The position numbers and the translations under genes are program-made. The notes beneath the pieces were generated by a model. That model was not told the DNA's origin. It did not search any database and saw only the letters and a program-made list of their open reading frames with translations. This document shows, piece by piece, positions 24,187 through 63,990 of a stretch of DNA of 64,000 nt (position 1 is its first letter; each line of letters starts with the position of its first letter). This DNA comes from an uncultured bacterium (GTDB lineage: Bacteria > CSSED10-310), in the NCBI GenBank assembly GCA_964404285.1, contig CAYOJK010000003.1, positions 69,511 to 133,510 of the forward strand, given 5' to 3'.

Positions 24187-26531
24187 TTAAAGACCTTCCG
24201 TTGAAAACCTCGAAAAACCAGCCAGATAATTCGAGGTGTAACATGTAGATAAGCTCGACATATTGGGATGAACTGTTCGTTGATGGCAAATTTACGAATC
24301 CATTCCCATTCAGCACGTCGAAATGTGCCCAGAAAATATCGAAGCGGGAAATGTTTTAAAACTAATTTCAGACGATTCCGATGATACAGAGTATAAAATC
24401 GTCGGCTAAACTTTCCCGTTGACGTGGATTCTTTATGTAAAGCAATGGCTTTATGACAGTATCTGACTCGATAACCGGCCCTTGAAGCCCGGATACAAAA
24501 ATCCAACTCTTCAAAGTAAGCAGGGGAAAACCGTTTGTCAAAATAACCTATTTCTCGAACAAGCGCTTTTTTAAATGCAAAGGCTGCGCCGGTAACATAG
24601 TCGACATCTCGGTCTTCATCGTATTGGCCCCTATCTTTTTCTCCGGCGCCGAAGTGATCAGTCAATCCATTGGGATGAAAAATGCCGCCGGCATGCTGCA
24701 AAGTGATGCCATCAGGATGATAAATTTTGCAGCCGGCAATTGCTACTGATTCGGTCATCAAAACATGTACAATCTCTGTTAAGAGCCCTTTTTGCATTAT
24801 TGCATCTTGATTTAAAAGAAATACGACGTCTCCAACTGATTTCTCGACACCTTGGTTAACACCGAGAGTAAATCCTTTGTTATGTGAATTGCGTATCAGT
24901 GTTATTTCTGGATAAAACTGTTGAATGTGCTCAGGTGTTCCATCCGAAGAACCATTATCGATGACAATGCATTCCAGATTTGGGTAATCGTGGTTAAGAA
25001 CCGATTTTAAACAGGGGTCAATATCATCTTTTCCATTCCAAGTGACAATAACGACGCTGATGAGCGGGTCTTTGGGTATTGGCAGCGGGGCAGAGGTCAG
25101 TTTAGGTCGATTGATAACCATATTTTCAATTTGACTGTTCTGACATTTTTGCTCAAACTGTTTTTCCAGATGTCTGATATATCGTTCCAGTTCGGTAATA
25201 TGGCTGTTTTTATTTTCAAGATCTTTTTCAATTATTTGTATGTAATTATGTGAAATATCTTTTGGAAAATCTGTCATACCTAAGTCAGGTTGTTGGGCAT
25301 GTTTGTCCGGCGCTTTTTCTGGGGAGTTCAGCCATTGTCGAAAGGGTAGTGTTGTTGCTTCAAATGAAAGATGTCGTAATGCATATTCCCTTGCACGCCG
25401 ACCTGTTAATTTGACTTCTTCAGGGTTTTGCGCGAGCTTCAAGATACGGTTACTTAGCGCCTCAGAATCGCCAAGAGGGTAGCTATATCCCAATCCTTTT
25501 TGCGGTAAATCGATGGAAAGCTCACATAATTCGCCTATTAAAGCCGGCAAATCAGCTTTCATCCAGTCCATCACTCTGTTTTTGCTACCGAAAATGCCTT
25601 CATACATATACCGATCAATATTAATCCCAATATTTGCTTCAAAATATGTGTTATGCACATCTTCCTTGGGAATCCAGCCTTTCAAGACAAATCTATCGGC
25701 ATACTTCGAACGATTCACAAGTTTGACAAATTTGGGGTAAGTGATCTCATCGTGACCATCTATCTGTCCGCCAGTGCTGACAAAATAAATATTCGGATTT
25801 TCTGCCATAGCTTTTTCAAGAGCATTAAACAGTGTATCGATATCTGTCCAGGTATTGAATCCGCCTGACCAGAGGACGACAAAAGCATTTTGAGGCACAT
25901 CTTTTCCTCGAAAGATAGTTTTATCATGCGTATAGAGCTCAGGTTCAATTGCGCAAGGGATTGAATGACAGAATTCATACCCCGTTGTTTGCGCTGAGAG
26001 GCGCTTGATTAGACCTAATTCACCTATCGTTGCATAAGATTGAGCTCTGGAAACGGTAGAAAACTTATCACCTGTTCGCAAAGCTAGGTATTGATGGTGT
26101 AAAAAATGATCCAGATATTCATTCGATTGATAGCGAAAGGCTTTTGCTTGTGCCTCTGCCATAACGTGTCCGAAAAGATCGATCCATACAGGGGCTGAAT
26201 ATTTTAGTTTTTCCAGTGGTTTGCAAGCAAAAACGGTGGCTGCCAAAATTACATCCGGTTTAAAACGATCGTGGATATCCTGAATTCTATGTTTATCGTT
26301 AAACACTTTATCAGACAGGTTGTAATACGTAAAACCATGTTTTTCTGTGATAATTTCTGGTGGTGTAGAGTCGGGATAAACAGAGGGTATTCGGTTGGCA
26401 ATTAAGGTCAACTCAATATTATCATCCAGAAGAGGTTGAATAAATTGCCAAGCACGAATTCCTGGTCCATAGGTCTTTTGTGTGTTTTCAAATGGAAGCG
26501 GGCTGAATCCAAAAACAAGAAGTTTGGGCAT
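24183..26531 (-). CDS. Bifunctional glycosyltransferase: N-terminal GT-B-like domain, central coiled coil, C-terminal GT2 (GT-A) domain
   Basis: The C-terminal VVIVTWNG...IVIDNGSSDGT...LNQD...EELDFC is a family-2 glycosyltransferase signature. The N-terminal 430 aa are paralogous to ORF 22771-24186. Confidence 0.65.
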   Translation of the reverse strand: MPKLLVFGFSPLPFENTQKTYGPGIRAWQFIQPLLDDNIELTLIANRIPSVYPDSTPPEIITEKHGFTYYNLSDKVFNDKHRIQDIHDRFKPDVILAATVFACKPLEKLKYSAPVWIDLFGHVMAEAQAKAFRYQSNEYLDHFLHHQYLALRTGDKFSTVSRAQSYATIGELGLIKRLSAQTTGYEFCHSIPCAIEPELYTHDKTIFRGKDVPQNAFVVLWSGGFNTWTDIDTLFNALEKAMAENPNIYFVSTGGQIDGHDEITYPKFVKLVNRSKYADRFVLKGWIPKEDVHNTYFEANIGINIDRYMYEGIFGSKNRVMDWMKADLPALIGELCELSIDLPQKGLGYSYPLGDSEALSNRILKLAQNPEEVKLTGRRAREYALRHLSFEATTLPFRQWLNSPEKAPDKHAQQPDLGMTDFPKDISHNYIQIIEKDLENKNSHITELERYIRHLEKQFEQKCQNSQIENMVINRPKLTSAPLPIPKDPLISVVIVTWNGKDDIDPCLKSVLNHDYPNLECIVIDNGSSDGTPEHIQQFYPEITLIRNSHNKGFTLGVNQGVEKSVGDVVFLLNQDAIMQKGLLTEIVHVLMTESVAIAGCKIYHPDGITLQHAGGIFHPNGLTDHFGAGEKDRGQYDEDRDVDYVTGAAFAFKKALVREIGYFDKRFSPAYFEELDFCIRASRAGYRVRYCHKAIALHKESTSTGKFSRRFYTLYHRNRLKLVLKHFPLRYFLGTFRRAEWEWIRKFAINEQFIPICRAYLHVTPRIIWLVFRGFQRKVFK

Positions 26532-26534
26532 TGG

Positions 26535-27617
26535 TCAGTTCTTTCTATCTATAAACTCAGTCAAGATGTTCAGGTATTTTTCTTGTAGATATAAAACAGT
26601 GCGCTGCTTTTCCGTAATTATTTTTTCAAGGTGAAAACAATATTGTTCCAATTTCCCATATTCAATTTGGTGTTCTTCAAATACGATATTCTTCTCCTTT
26701 ATATCAGTTGACAATTCATGGATTTTCTTATTTAAACCTGTAATGGAAGTTGAGTGACTCTTTAATTCCAATTCTAATTTTTTTATTGTGGATTCAAGTT
26801 TTTCCGCGTAATTAACCAAGTTTTTGAGCGCTGTATGTGTTTTTTTAAAAGCATCAACTATATTACCTGTATCTTGTTTTACGGGTGGCAATTTTAAATT
26901 CGAGCCTTTAAAAACAGGCAATGGAAAATGGCTGGCAACAATAAAAGTACGGTAAGAATCTGTTTCATCCTTACATGTTGTCGGCGCGCTGTTGATCAAT
27001 GCAAAAACTTCATTTCGTATAGGTTGTGCGTCGGGAAGAATGCCTAAAAAGTGGTCGATCAAAGAAGAAAGCAGCCAGATATGGTTAGGAAAGATATATA
27101 GTTTTTTTATGTATTTAAATGTTTCTGCAAGTTTTTGCTCGACGTGATCAGAATTGACGCCGGAAAAAGTAAAATGCTCATCCAAATAACGGTTTGATTT
27201 GCTATATAGATAAGTATAAATATCAGAAAGGGTTTTCTCATGAGTTATGCTGAATTCATGCTTTATGGGAAAAGCAAATATTGCCGTGTGTGAAGTGATT
27301 CTGGATATTTCTTGCAGCATTCTCCCACGGTTTACTTCATCTAAATGTTCCAGGACATCTAAACATACAATGATATCGAAAGCTTTTTTTCTAAACGGCA
27401 ACTGCTCACCATAGCATTGAATCAATGTCCCTTTGGTATTCTTTCGATCAATGTCAGCTTGTATTACAGGATATTGGTTTAAAAAAGATGTTAAAAGATT
27501 TTCGTTTGAACCTAAGTCAAGAATAGTTGGATTAGCCAAACCAGACGCCCTCAATGTTCGGATGTACTCGGTCGTAAAATAATATCTGTTGAATTTATCT
27601 GGCGCTTCGAAGATCAT
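26535..27617 (-). CDS. Class I SAM-dependent methyltransferase with C-terminal coiled-coil tail
   Basis: ILDLGSNENLL...DIIVCLDVLEHLDE matches the Methyltransf_11/23-like motifs I and post-II. The last roughly 110 aa are heptad-rich. Confidence 0.7.
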   Translation of the reverse strand: MIFEAPDKFNRYYFTTEYIRTLRASGLANPTILDLGSNENLLTSFLNQYPVIQADIDRKNTKGTLIQCYGEQLPFRKKAFDIIVCLDVLEHLDEVNRGRMLQEISRITSHTAIFAFPIKHEFSITHEKTLSDIYTYLYSKSNRYLDEHFTFSGVNSDHVEQKLAETFKYIKKLYIFPNHIWLLSSLIDHFLGILPDAQPIRNEVFALINSAPTTCKDETDSYRTFIVASHFPLPVFKGSNLKLPPVKQDTGNIVDAFKKTHTALKNLVNYAEKLESTIKKLELELKSHSTSITGLNKKIHELSTDIKEKNIVFEEHQIEYGKLEQYCFHLEKIITEKQRTVLYLQEKYLNILTEFIDRKN

Positions 27618-45495: not shown

Positions 45496-45570
<75 letters not shown>

Positions 45571-45595
45571 TTGAAAGGATGTTGGAAGTCGATGC

Positions 45596-45669
<74 letters not shown>

Positions 45670-45721
45670 TCGATGTGAATGACGGTGTACCACCGGTATC
45701 TCGGAGGTTTGAAAAGATGAT

Positions 45722-45796
45722 GGTGAGTGTAGCTCAGTTGGTTAGAGCGCCTGACTGTGGATCAGGAGGTCGAGGGTTCAAGTCCCTTCACTCACC
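45722..45796 (+). tRNA. tRNA-His (anticodon GTG) with encoded G-1
   Basis: Extra 5' G pairs with discriminator C. Acceptor GTGAGTG/CACTCAC. Anticodon loop CTGTGGA. Confidence 0.85.
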
Positions 45797-45805
45797 CTGT
45801 ATGGA

Positions 45806-45828
45806 GCCGAAGAAGCGTTGTCTTCGGC
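45806..45828 (+). other. Perfect 8-bp stem / 7-nt loop hairpin (GCCGAAGA-agcgttg-TCTTCGGC) followed by TTTGT, between tRNA-His and tRNA-Arg(TCG)
   Basis: Direct reading of the sequence. It could be a weak intrinsic terminator or a processing structure inside the tRNA operon. Confidence 0.4.
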
Positions 45829-45837
45829 TTTGTCTAT

Positions 45838-45911
<74 letters not shown>

Positions 45912-45930
45912 TATGAAAAACGGATTACCT

Positions 45931-46012
45931 GCGAGGATGGCGGAATTGGCAGACGCGCTGGACTTAGGATCCAGTGCCGCAAGGTGTGGGGGTTCAACTC
46001 CCCCTCCTCGCA
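45931..46012 (+). tRNA. tRNA-Leu (anticodon TAG), class II with long variable arm
   Basis: Acceptor GCGAGGA/TCCTCGC, anticodon loop CTTAGGA, long extra arm (GTGCCGCAAGGTGT), T-arm GGGGGTTCAACTCCCCC. Confidence 0.85.
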
Positions 46013-46089
46013 TGAAGTTGATACTCCGTAAGATGCGTGAATTAATGACAACTTCTTGTTGCGAATCCCTTTAAATGAGGTAGCTTAAA

Positions 46090-50540: not shown

Positions 50541-52676
50541 ATGATTGGAAAGAGTAAATTATCAAAATTTGGATTATTTACTAAAAGGCTTGGAATCATG
50601 ATTATTGGGATTCTGGCTGTCGTCATGATAAGCAAGCTTACAATCCAATACGCTCAAAGCCAGTTTCAATCAGGCATTGGCGTTTTTCATCAATTTGACC
50701 CTGTGTTTTCGATCTTTCGCCTTATAGGTGAGTGGGTTATCACCTCAAGCAGTGCTCATTGGTGTGTTTTTTCAGTGTTTACCACAATCATAATAGTGAC
50801 CATGTCTTGTGTTATATGCATAAAACATAAAAGCATCTGTAAGCCAATGGTTTTTATTGCTTTATCGATTGTTTTGGGTTTGTGGGCACGGTTTATCTCG
50901 TTTCACAACTCATCATCCTCTTGCTTACCCTGGATATTGTTGTGTTGTTCGGTTTTATCCGCCTTTTTTGCTGCCCTTATGTCTGGAACCGATATGAATG
51001 AAACACATTCAAAACCGGCTAAAAGAGTTTGGATCTGTGTAGCTCTAGTATTGATAGCAGGCTTTTTATTTCGAGTGTACCGATTGGATACTTTGCCGCC
51101 GGGACATGCACAGCACACGGCTCAATGGGGAATGATCGGAGCACGGAAGGCGTTACAACAAAAAGCAACATGGATAGACGAAGAAGGTCGACGTTTTTTT
51201 CTGGAACAAGTGAAATTGCTTATAGTGAATGAGCCGCATCAGGAAGGCCTCAATATATTTGTTGACTGGTTGCTTGCGAGCTGGTTTGGACCATCGCTTG
51301 TAGTTCAGCGAACAGCAACGGCCATGGTAGGACTTTTATCCCTGGTTGCGCTTTATTGGACAGCAGGTATCAACTTCGGCCGAAAAACCGCCTGCTTGAC
51401 CATGTTTTTTGCGGCAATATCACCATGGCATATTATGCATTCGCGCTATTCAAATATTGAACATATTTTACCACTCTTACTTGTTATTTTGTCGATGGGA
51501 CTACTGAAGAAATATCTACAAACTCGTTCGCTTAAAACTGCCATTTTACTACTTCTTGTCTTAGTTGCAGATTTTCATGTCTATGTCATTGCTCAATTTA
51601 TTGTCCCGATTATTCTGATAGTCTGGATAAATTCAATTTTTCAGACCAAAGATTTTCGTAAAACATCATTGGTTACTCTTGGGGTGGTATTCTTGTTATT
51701 TAGCATTGGTATAGCGCCAAAAACCGGTTTGTATGGCTGCAAAGATCACATTTCACTTTTAAACACATCGATAATGGCGCATCCATCTTATGTTATTCAA
51801 GGACAGAATGTTGTTGTTAGAAATATAATTACTGTCTTTCGTGGTTTATTTCTAAATGGAGAGGGTTCATTTTGGTTTCATAAAACGAATGGACATCTGA
51901 TTTGGCCGATTTCGATATCTCTAGTTATCGGTTTGGCTTATGCTTTCGTCAATCTTCACAAGTGGGCTTATCATTCGTTAATAATGTGGTTTTTTATTGG
52001 TTTGATTCCTGCCTTACCTTCGTCTGATCCAGCGCCTCGGCGTATTTTATGTGCATTACCTGCGATATACATTTTAGCAGCGTTAGGAGTTGACCATTTA
52101 CTCTCTCGATTAGTCGTGTGGCCGCTTATTCAGAGACGGTGGATGATAGTTTTTTTGTCGGGAGCATTGGCAGTATTGTTGTTATGCGGGGCATGGGTCT
52201 CATTTGAATACAATTCTATCAGCAGGGAAGACTTTTTGAATGGAAAAGAAAGGCGTTTTGCTGAAATTGTGTGTAGTTATCTGCCGGATTATACGGTTTA
52301 TTCTTTTTTGGACTCCTATACCAGGATTCAAAAAATCTGGATGATTTGTGGATGGTTGGGGCCGGAAGAGCCGTCACCCAATGCCGTGAAATTTTTAGAT
52401 CCGGAAAATGATCTGGATACATTGATCAAAACACGTGCTATACAACCGGTTTCCGAAGAAAAGCGTGGAGTCGTTTTTATTCTTCCCGCTTATCAAAATG
52501 GCTTGACAACGATTCAGGATGTGATGAAGCTTTTTTCAGAAGGAGACCATCAGTATTATAGGTTTGATCCTTATTTTAAGAATCATGATAAGGGTGAGCA
52601 GGAGTTTATTAGCTGGAAAGTCCAGAAGCATCTATTTAACGAAGTGTTAGAGATGTGGTCGTTTTCCGATATTTAA
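50541..52676 (+). CDS. Large polytopic membrane protein, GT-C/PMT_2-like putative glycosyltransferase
   Basis: 711 aa with at least 12 hydrophobic helices and an architecture like the ArnT/PMT-type membrane transferases encoded downstream. No soluble catalytic motif recognised. Confidence 0.45.
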   Translation: MIGKSKLSKFGLFTKRLGIMIIGILAVVMISKLTIQYAQSQFQSGIGVFHQFDPVFSIFRLIGEWVITSSSAHWCVFSVFTTIIIVTMSCVICIKHKSICKPMVFIALSIVLGLWARFISFHNSSSSCLPWILLCCSVLSAFFAALMSGTDMNETHSKPAKRVWICVALVLIAGFLFRVYRLDTLPPGHAQHTAQWGMIGARKALQQKATWIDEEGRRFFLEQVKLLIVNEPHQEGLNIFVDWLLASWFGPSLVVQRTATAMVGLLSLVALYWTAGINFGRKTACLTMFFAAISPWHIMHSRYSNIEHILPLLLVILSMGLLKKYLQTRSLKTAILLLLVLVADFHVYVIAQFIVPIILIVWINSIFQTKDFRKTSLVTLGVVFLLFSIGIAPKTGLYGCKDHISLLNTSIMAHPSYVIQGQNVVVRNIITVFRGLFLNGEGSFWFHKTNGHLIWPISISLVIGLAYAFVNLHKWAYHSLIMWFFIGLIPALPSSDPAPRRILCALPAIYILAALGVDHLLSRLVVWPLIQRRWMIVFLSGALAVLLLCGAWVSFEYNSISREDFLNGKERRFAEIVCSYLPDYTVYSFLDSYTRIQKIWMICGWLGPEEPSPNAVKFLDPENDLDTLIKTRAIQPVSEEKRGVVFILPAYQNGLTTIQDVMKLFSEGDHQYYRFDPYFKNHDKGEQEFISWKVQKHLFNEVLEMWSFSDI

Positions 52677-52802: not shown

Positions 52803-55760
52803 ATGGAAAACGAATCACCATCAATTAAATCAAATAAAACGAACAAACTATACGCAGGTTTGACATTACAATCCTGGCTGTGGATAGGTTTATTTGTATT
52901 TGTTATTTTCACTCGATTCCATCATTTAGGTGATAAACCGTTTCATCACGATGAAAGTTTGTATGGTAAATACATTTGGAATTTCCATGTAGGACAAGGG
53001 TATAAGTATGACCCGATGCAGCATGGCCCCTTTTTATTTCATATCAGTCAGGTGATTTTATTTCTGTTTGGCGTCACGAATTACACCATACGGATAGTGC
53101 CGGCATTGACAGGTGTATTCATCACGCTGGCATTTTTTCTGATGAGAAGACGATTGCCGTCTGGGGTGGCATTAATGACTGGGTGGTTATTTGCCATTAA
53201 TTCCGTCGCGATGTATTTCCAGCGCTTTCTTCTTCATGATCAACTGTTTGCACTCTTCGCCATGTTGATGATCTTGGTGGCTTTATTGTGGTTTGCTGAT
53301 CGAAAACAATGGCAGTTTTATCTGTTTTGTGCCTCGACATCGATATTGTATTGCATCAAGGGAAATGCTTTTGTCCATTATTTAACGATTTATTTGTTTG
53401 TGATTTTGTTTGCGGTTTACTGGCTGTTCATGCAAAAGAAAAAGTTATCCGAGTTGTTTCAGACCTACCCACTGGCGACAAAAACATTTGGAGCGGTGAC
53501 TTTTTGGGGAATATTATTTGTTGTCTATGCTGCGGTCAATCAATTTTGGAAATCCGGATTCGGCAATTGGGAAAAAGCGGTTCACTCGTACTGGATTATT
53601 GTATATGTCATATTTTTCCTGTTAATTGGGATTTTTGTCTATTTAGGTGAAGCTGTTCGGATCAATCCTGATAAACGTCCGTTGGGCCTAGCTTCGTCTT
53701 TTTATAAAGACAGTCATGTTTTTGCCTTTGGAACAGTAATTTTCTTCGGTATTTTAATTTTGCTGTACACAACACTCGGACAAAATCCAAAAGGGTTTTG
53801 GGGCGCTATGTACGAATGGTACACGTACTGGCTGCATCAACACTCAATTGCTCGAATATCCGGACCATTCCATTATTTCCATCATCAGATGGCGATATAC
53901 GCCTTTTTATCACTGAGTGTTTTGTTGGTCGCTGTTTTAGGCAGAGGAATTCGTAGAAATCCTGTCATATTCACTATTTACATAGTCGGATCAATTCTAT
54001 TGATATTTGGATTTAGATCATTGAATAGCCCGCTTCCTTTAACGAAAGAAAACCTTTTCACCAATGAGCATTTAGCGCTCGCCATAGTTGTGCTCGTTGG
54101 TGGGTTATTGATGACGTTTTCATATTTTCGGCAGCGTGAATATTTAAAAAGCTTTTATATATGGTGGTTTACTATAGCTTATATTATTTATTCCTATCTG
54201 CAGGAAAAAGTGCCTTGGTTGGTCATGCATATCGTGACACCGATGATTCTATATGCGGCTTTGGTTATGGCTGACGTTATCCGAGACAGGAAAAGTTTTC
54301 AAAAGTGGGCTAGGTACACAATTTTCACAATTTTTGGTTTCCTGATAGCCTATGAATTACACACATCCTTTCAATTATGTTGGCATAATGAAGCTGACCC
54401 GGTTGAGCAGATGGTATATGTTCAGACGACCTATGAAGTCCCCAAAATCATGGAAGAGATCGAGCGGATTGCTCATTGGGAAAACACGTTACACAAGAAA
54501 GAGCTGCCTATTGTAATCAATGGTCATGCAACCTGGCCGTTCTATTGGTATCTGCGTGATTGGAAGGGAATCAGTTATGGTTCAACGGTCAATCCGTCAA
54601 CTCACCTAATGGTTATCTGCAACTGGGAAGACCGTCACAAGTTTGCTGAGAAGATGGACGACAAATATGTCGCAAGACAATATGGTTTAAGAGCGTGGTT
54701 TTTACCTAAATATGCCGATGTTGCCAAAGATGGTAAGTTTTGGCGAAATGCTTGGCGATGGCTGGTATATCGCGAAAAATTCAACCCGACTTTGTATGGC
54801 GCTCAACAGATTTGTGTTTTTACACGAAAAGATGTTGCTATGTTTCAAAAAGGTATCGATTTAGGGCCTGCGCCAACTAAGCCCCAACGTCGTGAAGCGC
54901 CCAGACGGGATTCGATTAATATCAGCAGCATTAAAACATTTGGCTTATTTGGATCTCAGCGTGGAAATCTGAACTCGCCCAAAGGTGTAGCAATGGATTC
55001 CATAGGAAATATTTATGTGGCCGATCAACGAAATAATCGTATTCAGAAGTTTGATCAGAACGGTAAATTTTTATTGGCCTGGGGATCAAGCGGCTCAGAA
55101 AACGGTCAGTTCAATCAGCCAAGCGGCATTTTTGTAGGTAATCAAGACAACGTATTTGTAACGGATACCTGGAATCATCGAATTCAAAAGTTTGATTCTG
55201 AGGGGAAGTTTATTATGGCCTTTGGTGATAGTTCGACATTTTGGGCGCCAAAAGGTGTTGTCGAAGATCCTGACGGTTTCCTTTATGTTGCCAACACGGG
55301 TTTCCACAATATCATGAAATACACACGCGGCGGCAGCAAATTGTGGAGTGTTGGAGTCAAAGGCGATGGCCCCAAGGAATTTACTGAACCGGTAGGTATA
55401 TGCCTGGATAAAAAAGGCCAAGTGTATGTTGCAGATACTGCAAATAAACGAATATCGGTGTTTGATGGTAATGGAAACCATTTGCGCCAGATTTCTGTGT
55501 TTGGGTTGGAGGAATATTACACTGAGCCCTATATAGCTATCGATGAGACAAACCAGAGAGTTTTTCTAACGGATTCACGAAATAATCATATTCAAATATT
55601 TGATTTAAATGGTGAATTCATTGGTTTCTGGGGTTCGGAAGGTGCAGATGACGGCCAATTCAAATTGCCGACTGGTATTGCATTTCGTGATGGCAAACTT
55701 GTTGTGACCGAAGCTCAGAATCATCGAATACAGGTTTTCGATGCTGCTATGTTGAATTAA
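52803..55760 (+). CDS. PMT_2/GT-C-like polytopic membrane domain (TIGR03663-like) fused to a C-terminal NHL-repeat beta-propeller
   Basis: N-terminus TRFHHLGDKPFHHDESLYGKYIW...MQHGPFLF, with a DE motif in the first loop as in PMT/ArnT families. The C-terminal 290 aa contain six or more NHL repeats (GIAMD..GNIYVADQRNNRIQKFD). Confidence 0.65.
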   Translation: MENESPSIKSNKTNKLYAGLTLQSWLWIGLFVFVIFTRFHHLGDKPFHHDESLYGKYIWNFHVGQGYKYDPMQHGPFLFHISQVILFLFGVTNYTIRIVPALTGVFITLAFFLMRRRLPSGVALMTGWLFAINSVAMYFQRFLLHDQLFALFAMLMILVALLWFADRKQWQFYLFCASTSILYCIKGNAFVHYLTIYLFVILFAVYWLFMQKKKLSELFQTYPLATKTFGAVTFWGILFVVYAAVNQFWKSGFGNWEKAVHSYWIIVYVIFFLLIGIFVYLGEAVRINPDKRPLGLASSFYKDSHVFAFGTVIFFGILILLYTTLGQNPKGFWGAMYEWYTYWLHQHSIARISGPFHYFHHQMAIYAFLSLSVLLVAVLGRGIRRNPVIFTIYIVGSILLIFGFRSLNSPLPLTKENLFTNEHLALAIVVLVGGLLMTFSYFRQREYLKSFYIWWFTIAYIIYSYLQEKVPWLVMHIVTPMILYAALVMADVIRDRKSFQKWARYTIFTIFGFLIAYELHTSFQLCWHNEADPVEQMVYVQTTYEVPKIMEEIERIAHWENTLHKKELPIVINGHATWPFYWYLRDWKGISYGSTVNPSTHLMVICNWEDRHKFAEKMDDKYVARQYGLRAWFLPKYADVAKDGKFWRNAWRWLVYREKFNPTLYGAQQICVFTRKDVAMFQKGIDLGPAPTKPQRREAPRRDSINISSIKTFGLFGSQRGNLNSPKGVAMDSIGNIYVADQRNNRIQKFDQNGKFLLAWGSSGSENGQFNQPSGIFVGNQDNVFVTDTWNHRIQKFDSEGKFIMAFGDSSTFWAPKGVVEDPDGFLYVANTGFHNIMKYTRGGSKLWSVGVKGDGPKEFTEPVGICLDKKGQVYVADTANKRISVFDGNGNHLRQISVFGLEEYYTEPYIAIDETNQRVFLTDSRNNHIQIFDLNGEFIGFWGSEGADDGQFKLPTGIAFRDGKLVVTEAQNHRIQVFDAAMLN

Positions 55761-55827: not shown

Positions 55828-58197
55828 GTGGCTGAAGGACTGCTGCTGGTGTTTAAGTGGTGGTTGTTGATCCAGGTAATGGGGTTGGTTACCTGGCCAT
55901 TGGCACATCGATTTTTTCGAAGTTACCCGGACAGAGGATATATATTGAGCAAAGGGCTTGGCCTGATTCTGACTGGGTTTCTTAACTGGTTTCTTGTTTC
56001 GATACATCTTTTTAGATTTTCCCGTTTTTCAATTTGGTTTGCTATTGTCTGTGTTGCTCTGGCGTCTTGGTTTTTAAAAGTTGTGCCGATTCGGGAACTG
56101 TTCCGATTTTTTAAAGAACAAAAACGACTTGTCTTAACGATAGAAATAGTGTTTTTAGCAGCATTTATAGCTTTTACACTCGTTAGAATGGGGAACCCTG
56201 AAATTGCTCAGACAGAAAAAATGCCTGATTTCGCATTTCTTACAGGAGTCGTAACCAGTGATTATTTTCCCCCACGAGATCCATGGTACGCCGATGGAAC
56301 CATCAACTATTTTTATTACGGCCATTATCTTGTTGGAGTGCTCACAAAATTAGCGGGCACTGCTCCAGAATATGGGTTTAACTTAGGTGTTGCCGTGATT
56401 TTTGCGTTTACATTGTTAAATGCATCCGGAGTTGCGTTCGGTTTGATAAAAAAACTCCGATATGGAGTCTTAGGTGGTCTTTTTGTCGCTTTTATTGGAA
56501 ATCTTGACTGTGCAATACAATTATTCTCCAGCTTGAGCAAAATCCTAGCAGGTAGCCAAAAGTTTTATCCTTTCAATTGGTTTAACTGGTGGATGAGTTC
56601 GCGTGTTATTGTTCGTGAGGGGATAGATATCACTATCAATGAATTTCCGTTCTGGAGCTATATTTTGGGCGATTTGCATGCGCACATGAATGTCGTTCCG
56701 ATTTCTTTGATTGTTTTAGCAATTATACTTGAACATTTCAGGCACTCCGCGACAGGTTTAGATGGTCTAGGGGTGGGTCGTGATAAATGGTTCAGAATTG
56801 TTATAACAGCAATTGTTTTAGGCGCAATTCCATGTGCTAACACCTGGGATACACCGACATATTTTGCTCTGATGGTAGCTGCGATTCTACTAGCCAGACA
56901 ATTTCGGCCTGCAAGTCAATTGTTAACAGCAACGGATCAAGGTGAGATTTCTGTTGCTAAAATTATTGTGTCGCCGCTTAAAGAGTTATTCAACCGCATT
57001 TTGCCTAAAACTCTGCCGGGTGAGAAGAATGATTGGAAAGAATATCTGCTTTCCTGGCTTGGTGTTGTCATTATTATTGTGGCGGCATTATCCTTTTATG
57101 CTCCCTTTTATGCTTCTTTTCATCGGGTTGAAACAGGAGGATTAAAAATCGTCAATCCGAATCAATACACGTTAGCCGATGATTTCCTGACAATCTACGG
57201 ATTCTTCTTTTATTGTATGTTCCCCTTTGTTTTGGCACTAGTGTACCACCGGTTTACAAGCTTGAACGAACGGTTGAAGCCTTTAGTCGGTATTGCTTTG
57301 ATTCTGTTCTTTTTTGCTTTGTTCCTCGCTTTTGATCGGTTCATGATACCGTTCTGTCTGTTTTTTCTGTTCTTTACACTTGCTGTCCCGTTAAAAAAAG
57401 ATGACCCTGACATCAAAGAAAAGTTTTTTGCTCTGGCCTTGTGCGTGATGGTGTTGCTTGTTTTGTTGGGATGCGAGTTTTTCTATATTAAAGACGCTTA
57501 TGGCAAGACTCTGGAACGGCAAAATACGATTTTTAAATTTTACTATCAGGCATGGATATTTTGTGGCATTTCGGCTGCCTATGCCGTCTATTGGTTTCAA
57601 TGGAAAGCTCCAAAAACATTGAGTATTGTTTGGGAGCCTGTTTATAGACTTCTTCTGATTTGTACTTTGATGTTTCCATTTGTTGGATCAGCTGTAAAGA
57701 CCAATTATTTCCATAGTTTCACCCGTCCTTCTTCCCATGCAAAAGCCACTCTAGATGGGATTCATTATATGAGTTGGCAATATAAAGGAGATTATGAAGC
57801 TATCAAATGGCTGAAAAAACATGCCGGCCCCAAACAACGCGTTTTGGAGGCGACTGGGCCGGCTTTTTCTCATTACGGCCGGATATCGGCCGCGACAGGA
57901 ATGGCGACCATTTTAGGTTGGGGAAACCATGAAAACCTTTGGCGTGATGGTACCTGGAAAGTGATTGGAGTTCGATCAGAAGAGGTTAAGCAGGTTTACA
58001 CATCGAATAATCCGGTAAAAATCAGAGAGATTCTTGATAAATATAAAATAGACTTTGTTTTTTATGGCAAACTGGAAAGGGAGCAGTATCCGGGATCATC
58101 ACCGACACATTTCACGTTTTTAGAAAAAGTTTTGGAAGCAGGCGAAGCTGATGGAAACACATCATATTTGTTTCGGTACTCAACTTCGAATGGTTGA
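55828..58197 (+). CDS. YYY-domain (DUF2298 / TIGR03662-like) polytopic membrane protein
   Basis: DYFPPRDPWYADGTINYFYYGHYLVG and EFPFWSYILGDLHAHM motifs. Paralogous to the middle of ORF 58216-63990. GTG start after GGGAGG. Confidence 0.6.
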   Translation: MAEGLLLVFKWWLLIQVMGLVTWPLAHRFFRSYPDRGYILSKGLGLILTGFLNWFLVSIHLFRFSRFSIWFAIVCVALASWFLKVVPIRELFRFFKEQKRLVLTIEIVFLAAFIAFTLVRMGNPEIAQTEKMPDFAFLTGVVTSDYFPPRDPWYADGTINYFYYGHYLVGVLTKLAGTAPEYGFNLGVAVIFAFTLLNASGVAFGLIKKLRYGVLGGLFVAFIGNLDCAIQLFSSLSKILAGSQKFYPFNWFNWWMSSRVIVREGIDITINEFPFWSYILGDLHAHMNVVPISLIVLAIILEHFRHSATGLDGLGVGRDKWFRIVITAIVLGAIPCANTWDTPTYFALMVAAILLARQFRPASQLLTATDQGEISVAKIIVSPLKELFNRILPKTLPGEKNDWKEYLLSWLGVVIIIVAALSFYAPFYASFHRVETGGLKIVNPNQYTLADDFLTIYGFFFYCMFPFVLALVYHRFTSLNERLKPLVGIALILFFFALFLAFDRFMIPFCLFFLFFTLAVPLKKDDPDIKEKFFALALCVMVLLVLLGCEFFYIKDAYGKTLERQNTIFKFYYQAWIFCGISAAYAVYWFQWKAPKTLSIVWEPVYRLLLICTLMFPFVGSAVKTNYFHSFTRPSSHAKATLDGIHYMSWQYKGDYEAIKWLKKHAGPKQRVLEATGPAFSHYGRISAATGMATILGWGNHENLWRDGTWKVIGVRSEEVKQVYTSNNPVKIREILDKYKIDFVFYGKLEREQYPGSSPTHFTFLEKVLEAGEADGNTSYLFRYSTSNG

Positions 58198-58215
58198 TAC
58201 AGTGAAGGAGAAATC

Positions 58216-61200
58216 ATGAAATCTAAAGATCATTGGACAGAGGCCGGGAAAATCAGACGACGTAACTGGCTTCTGGTTCTCCTGTTTTTCTTAGGATTAG
58301 GCTTGAGATTGCATGGATTCAATTGGGGATTACCGCATCACTTTCATCCGGATGAACGTCAAATTGTCGATTTTCAAGCCCCCAAGGTACGCCTTGATAT
58401 CCTTAATCCTAAAAAATCACTCCCGCTATTGGTCAAAGGTGATTGGAAACAGCTCGATACGATGCTTTCCGGTATGAACACCAAGTTTTTCGCCTACGGA
58501 CCCCTGCCCATGTACACGTTGGTCATCGCTGTTGAAACACAGGATTGGATTAATAATCATGTGCGATCTTTTTCCGCCAATCAATCTTGGATATCTTTAG
58601 AGACTCATTTGAAGATAAATAATTGGTTTCCTCCATTAAAAGATGGTAGGGGGCGAATTATCATGGGTCGGATTTTAGCGGCGCTATTTTCAGCTTTTAC
58701 GATCTTGATTGTATTTCGGCTGGGAAAATACATGTACAATGTCAAAATCGGATATTTAGCTGCCGCGTTTTTTACATTCACTGTGCTATCTATTCAACAA
58801 GCACATTTTATGATTGTCGATGGCCCGCAGACATTTCTTGTTGCATGCGCAATGTATTACCTTGTACGAATAGCCATGGGTGACCGCCGACGTGACTACT
58901 ATTTATCCGGTATTTTTATCGGCCTAGCAATGGCGACTAAATTCAGCACTTCTCCAATAGCGCTCTCATATATATTGGCTCAGCTTCTATCGATGACGCT
59001 GGGCCGTCGTCGGGACAAAGCCTACTGGATTCACTGGATAGCAGGTGGAATTACCGCATTAGTGGTCATGACTATAGTCATGCCTTTTTGGATACTCGAT
59101 TCTCAAACGTTTTTCCGAGATATTACCGCTCAAAGCAATATGGTCACCGGTATCGCTGATTTGCCTTATACCATTCAGTTCGAACACACGATGCCGATAG
59201 TGTACATGCTTCAAAACCTAGTGTTATGGTCATTGGGATTGCCATTGGGTTTGGCAGCTCTTATTGGTTTAATTGCCGCAATTAGAAGAATCTGGAAAAA
59301 TCCTGAAGATCTGGGAAATATCGTTATTTTGTCATTTATTCTGCCACTAATGTATTTTAATGGAACATTTTTCGCCAAGTTTCTCAGATACACACTGGTT
59401 ACTATACCATTTCTAACTTTGTTTGCCGCCCGTTTGCTGCTCACCATGAAATCCTGGGCAGGGCGACGCTGGGAAAGAATAGCGACACTAGCGGTTATGA
59501 TTGGAACAATTCTTTGGGCAACAGCTTTTCAGACGATTTATTTGAAGCCGCATACTCGAATTCAAGCATCAGATTGGATATATGAGAACATTCCCGCTGG
59601 TAAAAACATTGTCCTGGAAAGCTCCTGGGATGATTCGGTGCCGGTATCAACTGAAAAAGGAACCCCAAGGATTTACAGCAGCAAACAAATGGGTGTCTAC
59701 AAGGAACCGGACAACCAGCTCCGTGCCAAGGCTATGGCAGAAATTTTGGAATGGGGGGATGTGGTCGTCCTGGCCTCTCGAAGACATTATGGATCAGTCA
59801 CTCGAGTTCCGAATCGCTATCCGGTATCTACTAATTTTTACAAACTTCTTTTTAATGAAAAACTGGGATATCAACATGTTAAAACGTTCGACAACCCTCC
59901 TGCATTGGGTCGACTGAAATTTAGAGATGATTTGGCTGATGAGAGCTTTAGAGTCTATGAACACCCTCGAGTCGATATTTTTGTCAAAGAATCAGGAATT
60001 TCAGCAAGTGGAATCGAAGCTCTTTTAATGGCGCCTCCGTCTGATGTTGTCGACATGAGCTACACGGAACTGCTGACCCGAAGACCTGCTACAGAGCTAG
60101 GATCACACGTTAATTATCCGATTATAAAATGGCTGTTGGCTATCTATATATTGGGATTCATTTGTATCCCTTTTGCCTATGTTATCTTTTCCAAATTTGA
60201 GCACAAAGGGTATCCATTTACCAAGTTAATGGGTTTGTTGATTGTTGGCTATTTTTCTTGGTTGATACCTAGCGCTCAATGGCTGCCTTTCTCTAGAACT
60301 TTGATCATTGCTGTAATGATTTTATTAGGATGGGCTGCCTATGTTACGTTTACAAAGCATTATACAGGAATTGCCAAATTTGTTCGTGAACGATGCTGGA
60401 GTATTGCCGGATATGAAATTTTGTTCTTAATAATATTTTGCTTATTTGGACTACTGAAAAGTTATAATCCGAACATTTACTGGAGTGAAAGCTCCATGGA
60501 TTTCGGCTTTTTAAACGCTGTTCTCAGAGCTGAATATTTTCCACCTGAGGATCCATGGATCCAGGGTCAGGGCATTAATTATTATTATTATGGACACTAT
60601 CTAGCAGGTTTTTTAACTAAGTTGACCGGCATAGAAGCTCATTACGGATACAATCTGTTTTTTATTACCATTCCCTCTTTAGTAGCGTTAAGTGTAGCCG
60701 CAATTCTTCTAGCCTTGACGCGACGTGTATGGGTTGCGTTAATAGGAGTTGTATTCTCCATTTTAATTGGAAACCTGGACGGATTGCCACAAATGGCCAA
60801 TATATGGGTTCGAAATTCACGCGGAACTAACACCTATCGCTTTGCAACCTTTTTTCAGACCATTATCGGTCAGGTTTTTAATCTTGGAAGACAAGACAAT
60901 CATTTTCGTTTTTTCCGTTCGGCACATGAACTCATACGACCAACGGTTCATGAATTTCCTTTTTGGAGTTATAACTTCATGGACCTTCATGCACACACTC
61001 TTGCGACAATGTTAACCGTGTTCTTCCTGGCGCTTCAATTAGTACTTTTACGAAATGAAAAAAATGGGATCAATTTGTTTGGTGATACCAAAACTGGCCG
61101 AGCCATGACCTTAGGGATTTTGTGGATAACATTTGGAGCGATGATCTCGACAAATTCATGGGATATACCGATACAGGTGATCTTGATGCTTTTAATATCT

Positions 61201-63990
61201 TTGTGGGTGATGGTTTATGTATCACGTCACCCTACCTATAGTATCAAAACCCAGCGCATTCCATCAGCGCCTTATCTGGATACACACGCCCAATCAGAAG
61301 ATTCCCTTTCCACTGAAAAACAGATCGATCAAAGCGAACAGATTCAATCTGGTGATGATTTAACAGTGACATTTTCAGAAATGTCCGTATCAGAGCCTGA
61401 CTCGTCAGAGTTACTGGACAGTGACACCAGAATTATCAATATAGAAGATCTATCAGATCCTGAACAAGAAAATGAAATTGAACCTCAAATTAAAGGAATA
61501 GATCAGCAAACTGAATCGGTTAATCAATCGAGTAATATGGCCGACCAGGTTTTCAAATCAGTAAACAAAGAAACGGAAGCGCATACATTTGAAGAGATAG
61601 AGTCAAAAGAGGTGTCTCTAAATGATGGTGATTCTGATAACACTGAACTGTCAAAACCGTTTTTGGATCGTTTGATCACTTGGGTGGACAATGGAATCAA
61701 ATGGGTGGCAACAGAGATATTTTTGACGCTATCATTTCTATGGAAACTTTTGTGGCCTTTAGCAGCGGTAATTGTTGGCGGCGTCGTTCTGCATTTACCT
61801 TTTCTAAATACATTTCACCGAGCAGGCATGGGTATAGGAACGCTATGGAAATACCGGCAGACAACCAATTTGGATGGTTTTCTAACCATGTTTGGATTCT
61901 TTATATTTATCTTTATCACACAATTTATCCTATGGTGGTGGAAAATACAGAAAGATAAAGGCCGCTCAACCGTTCAGATTTTATTCATCCTGGTAGCGGT
62001 TGTTACGATTTTGGCCCTGGTTTGGTATGGCCTTCTGACAATTCCAACGCGAAGTATCGATCATGCTGTTTTGCTGATAAGCATTTTTATCATTTACCTC
62101 CTTGGTTCCATTATTCTTGAAGGGCAGCCTGATGCCAATGAGGTGTTCCCATTGCTTCTGGCATTAGGTGCAGTCGGTATTACTGCCGGGTGTGAACTGG
62201 TATTTATAAAAGATTTCTACCACGGCAGCGATATGCGTCGATTCAATACGATTTTCAAGTTTTATATGCAAGCTTGGTTCATGTTTGCCCTTGTCTCAGC
62301 ATATTTAATGGCAAGACGATCACGTATTCGACATCGAGCTTATAAAAAGGCATCAACGAAATTTTTTGTTCAACTTGGATCCTGGGGATGGAGCATCGTA
62401 TTCCTGTTTCTATTTGGCGGATCCTTGATTTTTACATTTTGGGGAGTTTATGCACGTCATCATAATGGTGATTTTCAACAAGGCTTCAACTTTCCACCTG
62501 GCAGTCGAAGCCAATTAAAGGAACTTCCGTTAACGCTCGATGGTTGGGCATATATGAAAAAAGGGTATAGGCCTGTCAGCGAATATCGTGCGATTGATTG
62601 GTTGCAAAAGCACGTCAAGGGCACACCTGTTATTCTTGAAGCAAGTGGAGCTGACTATCTTTACCAATATGGAAATATTTCCGGTAATACCGGGCTGCCA
62701 ACAGTATTGGGCTGGTGGAGTCATGTCGATCAGCGAGAGTACTTGGTTCGAAAGGCTCGTGGAAAAGGGGAACGTGATAGACCTATTGATACCGGCAAAA
62801 TAAAGCGCGATATCGTCACGATGTATAGTAGTGTTGATATTCCAAAAGTCCTGAGTCTTCTAGGCCAATACCGGGTACGATATATTTTCGTTGGACCAAC
62901 CGAAAAAGCAGAATATGAATCACTTGGGTTGGAAAAGTTTAAAGAGATGACAACGTTTTTGACGCCTGTGTATTCCAATTCTGAAGTTGTAATATACGAA
63001 GTTCACGATTATGGACAAAGTGTTGATTTGGCTACGGCTATACAAGACAACACAGCGCTGAAAAGATTGCAGCAAGAAATGGCTGAGCGTGAAGAACAAG
63101 AACGTCTAAAGAAGATCGAAGCAGAACAAGAACAACAGCGGCGCATAATCAATATGCCGGCTCGAACGCTTTTCAAAGGATCCAAAGGCATTGGACGAGG
63201 TATGTACGAAGAGCCACGATCACAATCTGTTGCACCGGATGGTTCGATATATATTGCAGATTTTCGTAATCATCGCATCCAAAAATTTAATGCTGAAGGT
63301 GAATGGCAGTTGATGTGGGGCTCAACCGGAAATATGCCAGGGCAATTTAACGATATTTGCGATGTCGCAGCTAACTCACAATATGTTTATGTTCTGGATA
63401 CCTTCAACAATCGTATACAGATGTACTCGCATCAAGGTAGCTTTATTAGACTAATTGTGCCTGGTGATTACTCTATTTCGCACCCACGAGGAATTGCTGC
63501 CGATGAAGATTATATTTTCCTGTCCGATACAGGGAATTCTAGAATCATTCGAATGAATGCGTCAGGAGCCGACCCGATGCTGATCGGTAAAAGCGGTAAA
63601 GGCCAACTGCAATTTGGACACCCTGTTGGCATAGATATCAAGGGTGATGAAGTTTTTATTGTTGATACCCAAAACCAGCGTATTCAGGTAATCTCCAAGG
63701 ACGGTGCATATCTTCGCGAGTTCCCGGTTGAAGGTTGGGTAGCTGAAGTCTATAACGAACCTTATGTTGTCGTTGCATCGGATGGAACACTTTATTATTC
63801 AGATCCTTCTAAAGGTCAGGTAACTCAAATCGATCAAGATGGAAAAATTCTGAAACGTATCCGTAACAGTATCGATGGCAACTCATTATCGCTTCCTATG
63901 GGATTGGGCATAATGCCTAACGGGGATGTTTTCGTTGTGGATGCTGGAAATCATGCGGTTGTAAAAATATTTTCTCAGCATGAAGAATGA
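58216..63990 (+). CDS. Giant (1924 aa) fusion: PMT_2/GT-C-like membrane domain, YYY (DUF2298) membrane domain split by an acidic disordered linker, coiled coil, and a C-terminal NHL-repeat beta-propeller
   Basis: N-terminus GLRLHGFNWGLPHHFHPDERQIV. Mid-protein EYFPPEDPWIQGQGINYYYYGHYLAGF and EFPFWSYNFMDLHAHT. Acidic low-complexity segment at about aa 1010-1140. The C-terminal NHL repeats (SIYIADFRNHRIQKFN...) are paralogous to ORF 52803-55760. Confidence 0.65.
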   Translation: MKSKDHWTEAGKIRRRNWLLVLLFFLGLGLRLHGFNWGLPHHFHPDERQIVDFQAPKVRLDILNPKKSLPLLVKGDWKQLDTMLSGMNTKFFAYGPLPMYTLVIAVETQDWINNHVRSFSANQSWISLETHLKINNWFPPLKDGRGRIIMGRILAALFSAFTILIVFRLGKYMYNVKIGYLAAAFFTFTVLSIQQAHFMIVDGPQTFLVACAMYYLVRIAMGDRRRDYYLSGIFIGLAMATKFSTSPIALSYILAQLLSMTLGRRRDKAYWIHWIAGGITALVVMTIVMPFWILDSQTFFRDITAQSNMVTGIADLPYTIQFEHTMPIVYMLQNLVLWSLGLPLGLAALIGLIAAIRRIWKNPEDLGNIVILSFILPLMYFNGTFFAKFLRYTLVTIPFLTLFAARLLLTMKSWAGRRWERIATLAVMIGTILWATAFQTIYLKPHTRIQASDWIYENIPAGKNIVLESSWDDSVPVSTEKGTPRIYSSKQMGVYKEPDNQLRAKAMAEILEWGDVVVLASRRHYGSVTRVPNRYPVSTNFYKLLFNEKLGYQHVKTFDNPPALGRLKFRDDLADESFRVYEHPRVDIFVKESGISASGIEALLMAPPSDVVDMSYTELLTRRPATELGSHVNYPIIKWLLAIYILGFICIPFAYVIFSKFEHKGYPFTKLMGLLIVGYFSWLIPSAQWLPFSRTLIIAVMILLGWAAYVTFTKHYTGIAKFVRERCWSIAGYEILFLIIFCLFGLLKSYNPNIYWSESSMDFGFLNAVLRAEYFPPEDPWIQGQGINYYYYGHYLAGFLTKLTGIEAHYGYNLFFITIPSLVALSVAAILLALTRRVWVALIGVVFSILIGNLDGLPQMANIWVRNSRGTNTYRFATFFQTIIGQVFNLGRQDNHFRFFRSAHELIRPTVHEFPFWSYNFMDLHAHTLATMLTVFFLALQLVLLRNEKNGINLFGDTKTGRAMTLGILWITFGAMISTNSWDIPIQVILMLLISLWVMVYVSRHPTYSIKTQRIPSAPYLDTHAQSEDSLSTEKQIDQSEQIQSGDDLTVTFSEMSVSEPDSSELLDSDTRIINIEDLSDPEQENEIEPQIKGIDQQTESVNQSSNMADQVFKSVNKETEAHTFEEIESKEVSLNDGDSDNTELSKPFLDRLITWVDNGIKWVATEIFLTLSFLWKLLWPLAAVIVGGVVLHLPFLNTFHRAGMGIGTLWKYRQTTNLDGFLTMFGFFIFIFITQFILWWWKIQKDKGRSTVQILFILVAVVTILALVWYGLLTIPTRSIDHAVLLISIFIIYLLGSIILEGQPDANEVFPLLLALGAVGITAGCELVFIKDFYHGSDMRRFNTIFKFYMQAWFMFALVSAYLMARRSRIRHRAYKKASTKFFVQLGSWGWSIVFLFLFGGSLIFTFWGVYARHHNGDFQQGFNFPPGSRSQLKELPLTLDGWAYMKKGYRPVSEYRAIDWLQKHVKGTPVILEASGADYLYQYGNISGNTGLPTVLGWWSHVDQREYLVRKARGKGERDRPIDTGKIKRDIVTMYSSVDIPKVLSLLGQYRVRYIFVGPTEKAEYESLGLEKFKEMTTFLTPVYSNSEVVIYEVHDYGQSVDLATAIQDNTALKRLQQEMAEREEQERLKKIEAEQEQQRRIINMPARTLFKGSKGIGRGMYEEPRSQSVAPDGSIYIADFRNHRIQKFNAEGEWQLMWGSTGNMPGQFNDICDVAANSQYVYVLDTFNNRIQMYSHQGSFIRLIVPGDYSISHPRGIAADEDYIFLSDTGNSRIIRMNASGADPMLIGKSGKGQLQFGHPVGIDIKGDEVFIVDTQNQRIQVISKDGAYLREFPVEGWVAEVYNEPYVVVASDGTLYYSDPSKGQVTQIDQDGKILKRIRNSIDGNSLSLPMGLGIMPNGDVFVVDAGNHAVVKIFSQHEE

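Follow-up and report, generated by a model that had tools for sequence, protein, structure and literature searches.

According to our analysis, the open reading frame (ORF) at 58216-63990 (+ strand) of the window studied here, a stretch of 64,000 nucleotides from an uncultured bacterium of the lineage CSSED10-310 (assembly GCA_964404285.1, contig CAYOJK010000003.1, positions 69,511 to 133,510), encodes a 1924-residue fusion protein which we read, with moderate confidence, as a bifunctional periplasm-facing GT-C glycosyltransferase whose NHL propeller selects the acceptor. One inner-membrane polypeptide would carry two glycosyltransferase modules of the GT-C fold in tandem, module 1 (aa 1-621) being a GT-C of PMT/ArnT-like type whose first helix is followed by an HPDE motif, and module 2 (aa 635-1612) a YYY/DUF2298 GT-C whose terminal globular domain resembles the one found in the archaeal oligosaccharyltransferase AglB. 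The two predicted active sites are expected to face the periplasm, as are the two soluble domains, and a stiff charged helix of about 34 residues would hold the six-bladed propeller beyond the second enzyme, where it most likely captures the acceptor, either a protein or a glycan. The original prediction, made from the letters of the window, had recognized a fusion with related genes in the same cluster; the fusion holds, YYY and NHL paralogues exist in the cluster, and the genes are syntenic in related loci, while the presence of two GT-C enzymes in tandem had been missed. Since YYY itself adopts the GT-C fold, the meaning of the fusion changes to that of two enzymes placed one after the other.

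Integrity of the fusion gene and its relatives

The fusion gene runs without interruption from ATG to TGA and is preceded by a Shine-Dalgarno sequence, AAGGAG, at 58205..58210 (+), 5 nt ahead of the ATG at 58216. The stop codon of the preceding gene lies 18 nt away, and base composition is uniform over the fusion-gene region. Twenty-one contigs, which derive from at least five independent sequencing runs, carry the identical 1924-residue protein, and the five places shown for it, each from a different sequencing or assembly accession, have the same neighbors (5/5). Collinear fusion orthologues with 45 to 83% identity and the same module order are present at seven related loci (three labeled candidate division CSSED10-310 and four unclassified bacterial metagenome-assembled genomes [MAGs]), five of them full-length and two cut by a contig end. 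In the alignment of the 14 closest full-length orthologues, both the junction between module 1 and YYY (aa 590-640) and the linker between YYY and NHL (aa 1590-1660) are free of gaps. On these grounds the continuous frame is real, and the fusion is genuine rather than an artefact.

An error of assembly or gene calling that merged two or three adjacent genes would be the alternative origin of such a long ORF, and a related assembly could be cited for it, in which the orthologue (L008 8001-14165) is found in at least six ORFs in frames 3, 1, 2, 1, 2, and 1. However, these pieces are collinear over aa 1-1918 and alternate in frame, and the gene upstream is likewise split; hence, they do not represent a naturally split gene, and the breakage indicates an indel-prone assembly or a pseudogene or decaying copy. 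That the 733-residue protein P0121 (71% identity) might stem from a genuinely split gene was weighed as well and rejected for similar reasons, its locus being collinear and frame-shifted throughout, with a broken neighbor. Given the agreement of at least five independent samples, the seven collinear loci with gap-free junctions in the closest orthologues, and the recurrence of the same module order in hundreds of database proteins, we deem a merging artefact extremely improbable and already effectively refuted.

A homologue search returned 718 proteins at an E value of 1e-10 or better. Among the best 120 of them, nearly all are PMT_2+DUF2298 fusions, 37 with a C-terminal NHL domain and 3 with tetratricopeptide repeats (TPR), so that the order of modules read from the translation, PMT_2 followed by YYY and in many cases by NHL, recurs as in the protein studied here. 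These homologues go by the names "DUF2298 domain-containing protein," "YYY domain-containing protein," and "glycosyltransferase family 39 protein," and examples of the fusion come from Ca. Vecturithrix, Ca. Moduliflexus, Ktedonobacteria, and Thermoanaerobaculaceae. The architecture itself is, therefore, not new to the databases, although we found no published account of YYY as a GT-C family or of tandem GT-C/NHL enzymes in the literature. What distinguishes the protein is the tandem of GT-C modules, the AglB-like domain on YYY, the helix-tethered propeller, and the clade-specific acidic loop, which is predicted to be cytoplasmic.

The two GT-C-fold modules

AlphaFold2 models, calculated from 45-sequence alignments for parts of the protein, reveal two soluble alpha/beta domains which had been overlooked in the reading of the translation (aa 447-621 and 1417-1612).

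Module 1 consists of a PMT_2-like membrane core of GT-C fold with about 13 helices (aa 1-446; 58216..59553, +), followed by the first soluble alpha/beta domain (aa 447-621; 59554..60078, +), which is predicted to be periplasmic. Pfam places PMT_2 at aa 151-287 (46.5 bits; cut-off, 26.1), and this is the only PMT-type family which it detects in the whole protein, with neither PMT (PF02366) nor MIR matched; PF02366 matches are precomputed for some of the fusion orthologues. The motif H44-P45-D46-E47 (58345..58356, +) directly follows the helix at aa 18-32 and is at least 90% conserved in the 45-sequence alignment. The DE motif of the PMT family is catalytic, and D46-E47 is thus a candidate catalytic acidic pair by analogy. 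With its multihelix membrane fold and conserved acidic residues in the first extracytoplasmic loop, module 1 has the hallmarks of a GT-C enzyme, and its fold is closest to that of Pmt4, whereas its sequence has no match in the PDB. Identity to the GT39 protein O-mannosyltransferases Pmt1, Pmt2, and Pmt4 amounts to 11 to 13%; the present protein differs from them by the missing PF02366 match and MIR domain, and its second module derives from a different family. Stand-alone relatives of module 1 elsewhere are about 600 aa long, are annotated "GT39," and share about 30% identity; they were considered as possible neighbors of YYY genes and discarded, since the case inspected, from the single genome of Dictyobacter aurantiacus, adjoins other PMT_2 genes and no YYY gene. 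There is no sign that the two modules arose by internal duplication, as the hhalign comparison of module 1 with the YYY module returned only the trivial 40-residue overlap of the constructs.

Module 2 is a member of YYY/DUF2298, matching both TIGR03662 (Chlor_Arch_YYY; 413.4 bits; NCBIfam cut-off, 300.25) and PF10060 (DUF2298; 280.3 bits; cut-off, 27.8) in two stretches, which in the latter case are parted by the acidic insert described below. Its N-terminal membrane half (aa 635-1002; 60118..61221, +) contains E758, YYYY at aa 789-792, EFPFW..DLHAH at aa 913-927, and NSWD at aa 980-983, and its C-terminal membrane half (aa 1149-1416; 61660..62463, +), supported by 29% identity to the neighboring paralogue, AlphaFold2 helices, and invariant residues, carries the invariant R1342-x-N-T-x-F-K1348. 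The second soluble domain, a C-terminal globular domain of AglB/STT3 type (aa 1417-1612; 62464..63051, +) with the invariant H1503 and E1563, is predicted to be periplasmic. When the protein was aligned with 103 stand-alone YYY proteins from very distant lineages, E758, Y789, Y791, E913, P915, D923, H925, and H927, as well as N980, W982, R1342, N1344, K1348, H1503, and E1563, were each found to be conserved in 99 to 104 of the 104 sequences, and YYYYG at aa 789-793 fits the YYYxG motif of the family. This set of invariant residues looks like an active or ligand-binding site and not like a degenerate domain.

The membrane part of module 2 likewise shows the multihelix GT-C fold, and its C-terminal domain matches the AglB type in fold, though not in sequence. 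Compared with the GT66 enzymes AglB, PglB, and STT3, it has no STT3 match in Pfam and lacks the WWDYG motif, the corresponding stretch reading LGWWSHVDQ; instead, YYY possesses invariants of its own, namely, E, YYYxG, ExPxW..DxHxH, NxWD, and RxNTxFK. In the search of the family profile against the PDB, only NHL structures and no membrane glycosyltransferase were among the best 60 matches.

The context of distant members bears on the function of YYY. In three-component systems, a synthase charges polyprenyl phosphate, a flippase exports the product, and a GT-C enzyme transfers the sugar (PMC11127046). All five distant stand-alone YYY genes that we looked up adjoin genes for GT2, GT2 plus GtrA, or PMT_2-type proteins. 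In Halomicrobium mukohataei (L010 3677-7385), GT2 and GtrA-like genes lie next to the YYY gene in divergent orientation, which corresponds to the minimal three-component arrangement as judged from gene content. In Devosia sp. A16 (L011 2938-7070), a GT2 gene overlaps the start of the YYY gene and a UDP-galactopyranose mutase (GLF) gene precedes it, and some YYY enzymes may, after this context, transfer galactofuranose. The remaining three genes stand beside PMT/PMT_2/PAP2/UbiA genes in a bacterium of the candidate phyla radiation (CPR), beside a PMT_2+YYY fusion and a PMT_2+NHL gene in a Chloroflexota MAG, and beside a PMT_2+PA14 gene in Coatesbacteria. These layouts suggest that YYY occupies the transferase slot of three-component systems, and the gene context (GT2, GtrA, and additional GT-C genes) speaks for glycosylation outside the cytoplasm with polyprenyl-phosphate sugars as donors.

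A GT-C fold need not entail catalysis, and PIG-U of the glycosylphosphatidylinositol (GPI) transamidase is a likened case of a noncatalytic partner with this fold. Only module 1 might then be enzymatic, with YYY binding, scrambling, or presenting the lipid-linked donor or acceptor; flipping of lipid-linked glycans is reported for Agl23, a protein with PMT_2-like similarity, and YYY has no sequence match among solved or characterized glycosyltransferases. We consider such a division of labor unlikely. In Halomicrobium (beside GT2 and GtrA) and in Devosia (beside GT2) the stand-alone YYY takes the transferase (GtrC) position, and no other GT-C gene is present in the immediate operon of either. 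In addition, the many invariant acidic, His, and Arg/Lys residues form a dense set that resembles an active site, and C-terminal domains of the AglB type are typically found on catalytic subunits. A catalytic role of both modules is, accordingly, the reading that we keep.

The acidic insert and the tethered propeller

The YYY domain is interrupted between its two helical bundles by an acidic, Ser/Asp/Glu-rich low-complexity segment which had been noticed in the translation and is indeed present, measuring 146 aa (aa 1003-1148; 61222..61659, +) and splitting the YYY matches in two. It contains 34 Asp+Glu, 10 Lys+Arg, and 34 Ser+Thr residues (23% Ser+Thr), with a net charge of -24, and its disorder is predicted by AlphaFold2, with a predicted local distance difference test (pLDDT) value of about 30 over aa 1008-1146. 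Of the 14 closest orthologues, 13 possess the insert, with 4 to 34% identity, against 47 to 88% in the flanking modules, and the region aligned to aa 1003-1165 in these 14 proteins ranges from 72 to 412 aa and from -5 to -124 in net charge. Its composition is conserved and its sequence is not, as expected of a disordered region. No tandem repeats were found in the DNA of the insert, for which reason an origin by tandem-repeat expansion was rejected.

Beyond the closest orthologues, the database fusions have the same order of a PMT_2-like GT-C followed by YYY but no long acidic insert: in 92 other PMT_2+YYY fusions the segment aligned to aa 1003-1148 is 0 to 66 aa long, and the wider loop between helices k and l (aa 1003-1170) is a basic stretch with a median length of 8 aa (2.3 Lys+Arg versus 0.8 Asp+Glu). 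The same loop measures 1 to 26 aa in the 103 stand-alone YYY proteins, which also lack the insert. The insert would, therefore, be a lineage-specific expansion of a normally short, basic cytoplasmic turn, located between YYY helices seven and eight as counted from the helix ahead of the YYYY loop, and it may act as a spacer, a regulator, or a docking site.

As for its location, the distribution of Lys and Arg in 106 sequences follows a positive-inside pattern that puts the insert loop in the cytoplasm, and counting helices leads to the same side, whether one starts at the outward-facing conserved motifs or at loop q-r, which is strongly basic and precedes the last helix. We regard a cytoplasmic insert as probable, with fairly high confidence. 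Were it periplasmic instead, it could itself be an O-glycosylation substrate of the enzyme, for which its 23% Ser+Thr content would speak, together with its likeness to the extracytoplasmic Ser/Thr-rich disordered regions that are reported to be glycosylated by GT-C enzymes in streptococci (PMC12041528). Several features argue against this idea, namely, that the turn is short and basic in the 92 other fusions, as is typical of cytoplasmic loops, that the helix counts from both the q-r loop and the outward-facing motifs place the insert inside, and that the insert starts with SRHPTYSIKTQR; a self-glycosylating insert is, in our judgment, rather improbable. The preferred cytoplasmic placement enters a more far-reaching joint claim: YYY/DUF2298 would be a catalytic GT-C family with its own active-site signature (E, ExPxW..DxHxH, and RxNTxFK), locked here in a fixed "heterodimer" with a PMT-like GT-C, so that two successive transfers take place on a propeller-held acceptor while the acidic cytoplasmic segment links the enzyme with donor supply or with a partner in the cytoplasm. 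We put this combination forward tentatively and hold it to be doubtful as a whole.

The YYY module is joined to the propeller by a 34-residue charged segment (aa 1613-1646; 63052..63153, +) which forms one continuous helix in the AlphaFold2 model. This segment had been described as a coiled coil following the last transmembrane helices, a description which its heptad pattern does not bear out, as no register places hydrophobic residues at more than 3 of 10 a/d positions. Because 65% of its residues are E, Q, R, K, or D, its heptads are poor, and its length is fixed (gap-free in 14 orthologues), it resembles a spacer made of a single charged helix more than it does a classical coiled coil.

The C-terminal part of the protein is a six-bladed NHL beta-propeller (aa 1655-1924; 63178..63987, +), with PF01436 repeats at about aa 1655-1912 (65.8 bits; cut-off, 20) and six blade motifs at aa 1678, 1724, 1767, 1813, 1859, and 1905, spaced by about 45 aa. 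The profile of the family alignment, which includes NHL-bearing homologues, matches solved NHL domains. To our knowledge, a C-terminal domain of the kind that precedes the propeller is extracytoplasmic in all GT-C enzymes having one. Moreover, the window encodes BamA (Omp85+POTRA; 864-3242), from which we conclude that the organism is diderm; since the propeller follows an extracytoplasmic-type domain in such an organism, it is predicted to be periplasmic.

The putative envelope-glycosylation island

Upstream of the fusion gene on the same strand lie, in order, a gene for a 711-aa membrane protein which opens the island (50541..52676), a gene for a 985-aa TIGR03663 (Agl23-like) membrane protein with a C-terminal NHL domain (52803..55760), and a gene for a stand-alone YYY/DUF2298 protein of 789 aa (55828..58197). 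The 711-aa protein shows sub-threshold similarity to PMT_2 in its middle (aa 242-386), where its 20.2 bits fall short of the cut-off. Apart from the window's own genome, only the two closest relatives (L001 and L008) have it in this place; it appears as two genes in L008, as a 692-aa protein with a later start in L015, and at another place in L006. The Agl23-like assignment relies on profile scores (TIGR03663, 244 bits against a cut-off of 126; NHL, 134.7 bits) and on synteny, as does the assignment of the stand-alone YYY protein (TIGR03662, 537 bits), which is a paralogue of module 2.

Similarity between segments of the fusion protein and these neighbors had been proposed. It is evident for the YYY part, which aligns with the product of 55828-58197 in two blocks of 31% (E = 4e-51) and 29% (E = 1e-26) identity with the insert between them, and for the NHL part, which shares 32% identity (E = 5e-39) with the C-terminal propeller encoded by 52803-55760. 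The claim that YYY also occurs as a separate gene in the cluster is, therefore, upheld. The same claim for the N-terminal domain and ORF 52803-55760 is not, as no similarity was detectable between the two (BLASTP E = 0.9; hhalign probability, 0.5%); the ORF encodes an Agl23-like protein with an NHL domain, and module 1 does not match TIGR03663 at E below 0.01. Module 1 has a weak profile match to ORF 50541 (hhalign probability, 63%), and BLASTP connects it with none of the other GT-C genes in the island, so that the claim holds for the broad PMT_2 superfamily and not below that level. Because the fused N-terminal module and the Agl23-like gene belong to different GT-C subfamilies, the fusion does not serve as a Rosetta stone for the pair formed by the Agl23-like and YYY genes.

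The block of Agl23-like+NHL, YYY, and fusion genes is syntenic at all seven related loci, down to 45% identity, and the same gene types come together in the Chloroflexota MAG SCUE01000012 (L013 1-12373), where a PMT_2+YYY fusion overlaps a stand-alone YYY gene, followed by a gene for a 599-aa protein (no Pfam match) and a PMT_2+NHL gene. Both observations argue for a shared pathway of the three genes. The original prediction had gone further and regarded the separate proteins of the cluster as parts of one machine. A multisubunit membrane complex of the fusion protein with the Agl23-like+NHL, YYY, and further PMT_2 proteins would be in line with synteny maintained over deep divergence, with the repetition of the gene-type pattern in the Chloroflexota MAG, and with the related NHL propellers that three island proteins share. 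On the other hand, sequential steps of a pathway explain the synteny equally well, and the fused N-terminal module and the neighboring Agl23-like protein are of different families; we consider one complex possible, with the odds against it, and retain the shared pathway.

The island continues past the end of the window on the opposite strand, as seen in the same or a sister genome (L015 15965-25025 and L001 18203-27254), with genes for two PMT_2 proteins (1021 and 714 aa), an N-terminal NHL+PMT_2 protein (969 to 980 aa), and a GT2 protein (320 aa), followed by Dus. Altogether, the island comprises seven GT-C genes with eight GT-C-type modules, three NHL propellers, and one GT2. The best family matches of the latter are AglJ, dolichyl phosphate (Dol-P)-hexose transferase, PpgS, and ArnC, i.e., polyprenyl-phosphate sugar synthases, and no GtrA-type flippase was seen in the island. 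A candidate flippase, by analogy, is the adjacent Agl23-like protein, since Agl23 has been associated with flipping of such lipid-linked sugars (PMC11182771). In the proposed scheme, the donors would be polyprenyl-phosphate sugars made in the cytoplasm by the island GT2 and then flipped across the membrane, possibly by the Agl23-like protein, following the logic of the Gtr/Arn-type three-component systems.

A number of points weigh against the reading of the protein as a bifunctional periplasm-facing glycosyltransferase. Next to the missing sequence match of YYY to any solved or characterized glycosyltransferase, a literature search on DUF2298, PF10060, TIGR03662, and YYY function returned nothing relevant and no characterized member. 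The predicted topology derives from sequence rules and secondary structure, and loop l-m (+1.1) runs counter to the positive-inside pattern. As regards donor supply, the matches of the island GT2, which is located outside the window, are all below curated equivalog cut-offs, and Agl23-like proteins may be glycosyltransferases rather than flippases.

Comparison with known systems places the island close to, though apart from, the Gtr/Arn three-component systems (PMC11127046), with which it has in common GT-C transferases and a GT2 of the polyprenyl-phosphate-synthase type. Those systems have one GT-C, whereas here there are eight modules, two of them fused in one polypeptide, together with NHL propellers and, as flippase candidate, the Agl23-like protein in place of the GtrA type. 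The adjacent gene 52803-55760 passes the TIGR03663 cut-off of Agl23, known from Haloarcula hispanica, and adds an NHL propeller to it, while the N-terminal module of the fusion protein does not match this family.

GT-C enzymes build or decorate cell envelopes, as in O-antigens, arabinogalactan, and protein glycans. The YYY/DUF2298 family has a GT-C fold with an oligosaccharyltransferase-like C-terminal domain and recurs in fusions with a second GT-C and with putative acceptor-binding repeat domains; fold, context, and fusions together give a testable function to this family of Archaea and Bacteria. If the catalytic assignment is true, YYY/DUF2298 would be an unrecognized family with an AglB-type C-terminal domain, widespread in Archaea, CPR, Chloroflexota, and Proteobacteria. 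For a family that nobody has studied, the finding offers a solid lead to function; it overturns nothing known and should not surprise a specialist, and the island, with its eight GT-C modules and three propellers, would be an unusually elaborate one for envelope glycosylation in an uncultured phylum.

GT-C enzymes of the TMTC1-4 type carry a C-terminal protein-binding repeat domain. Like them, the fusion protein combines a GT-C core with a soluble repeat domain that could select the acceptor, with the differences that this domain is a TPR there and an NHL propeller here and that the GT-C modules are in tandem here. Elsewhere in the window, the gene at 20830-22755 (+) encodes a further GT-C protein, of PMT_2 type with C-terminal TPR in a TMTC-like layout, and is adjoined by GT1, GT2, and methyltransferase genes at 22771-27617.

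Two further observations concern other parts of the window. A few genes downstream of the canonical BamA gene, the ORF at 7840-10710 (+) encodes a 956-aa protein in which Peptidase_MA_2 and PD40 propeller repeats are followed by a C-terminal Omp85 barrel, which is an unusual outer-membrane architecture. At 45496-46013 (+), five tRNA genes (Pro-TGG, Arg-TCT, His-GTG, Arg-TCG, and Leu-TAG) directly precede the genes for trigger factor, clpP, and a GTPase.

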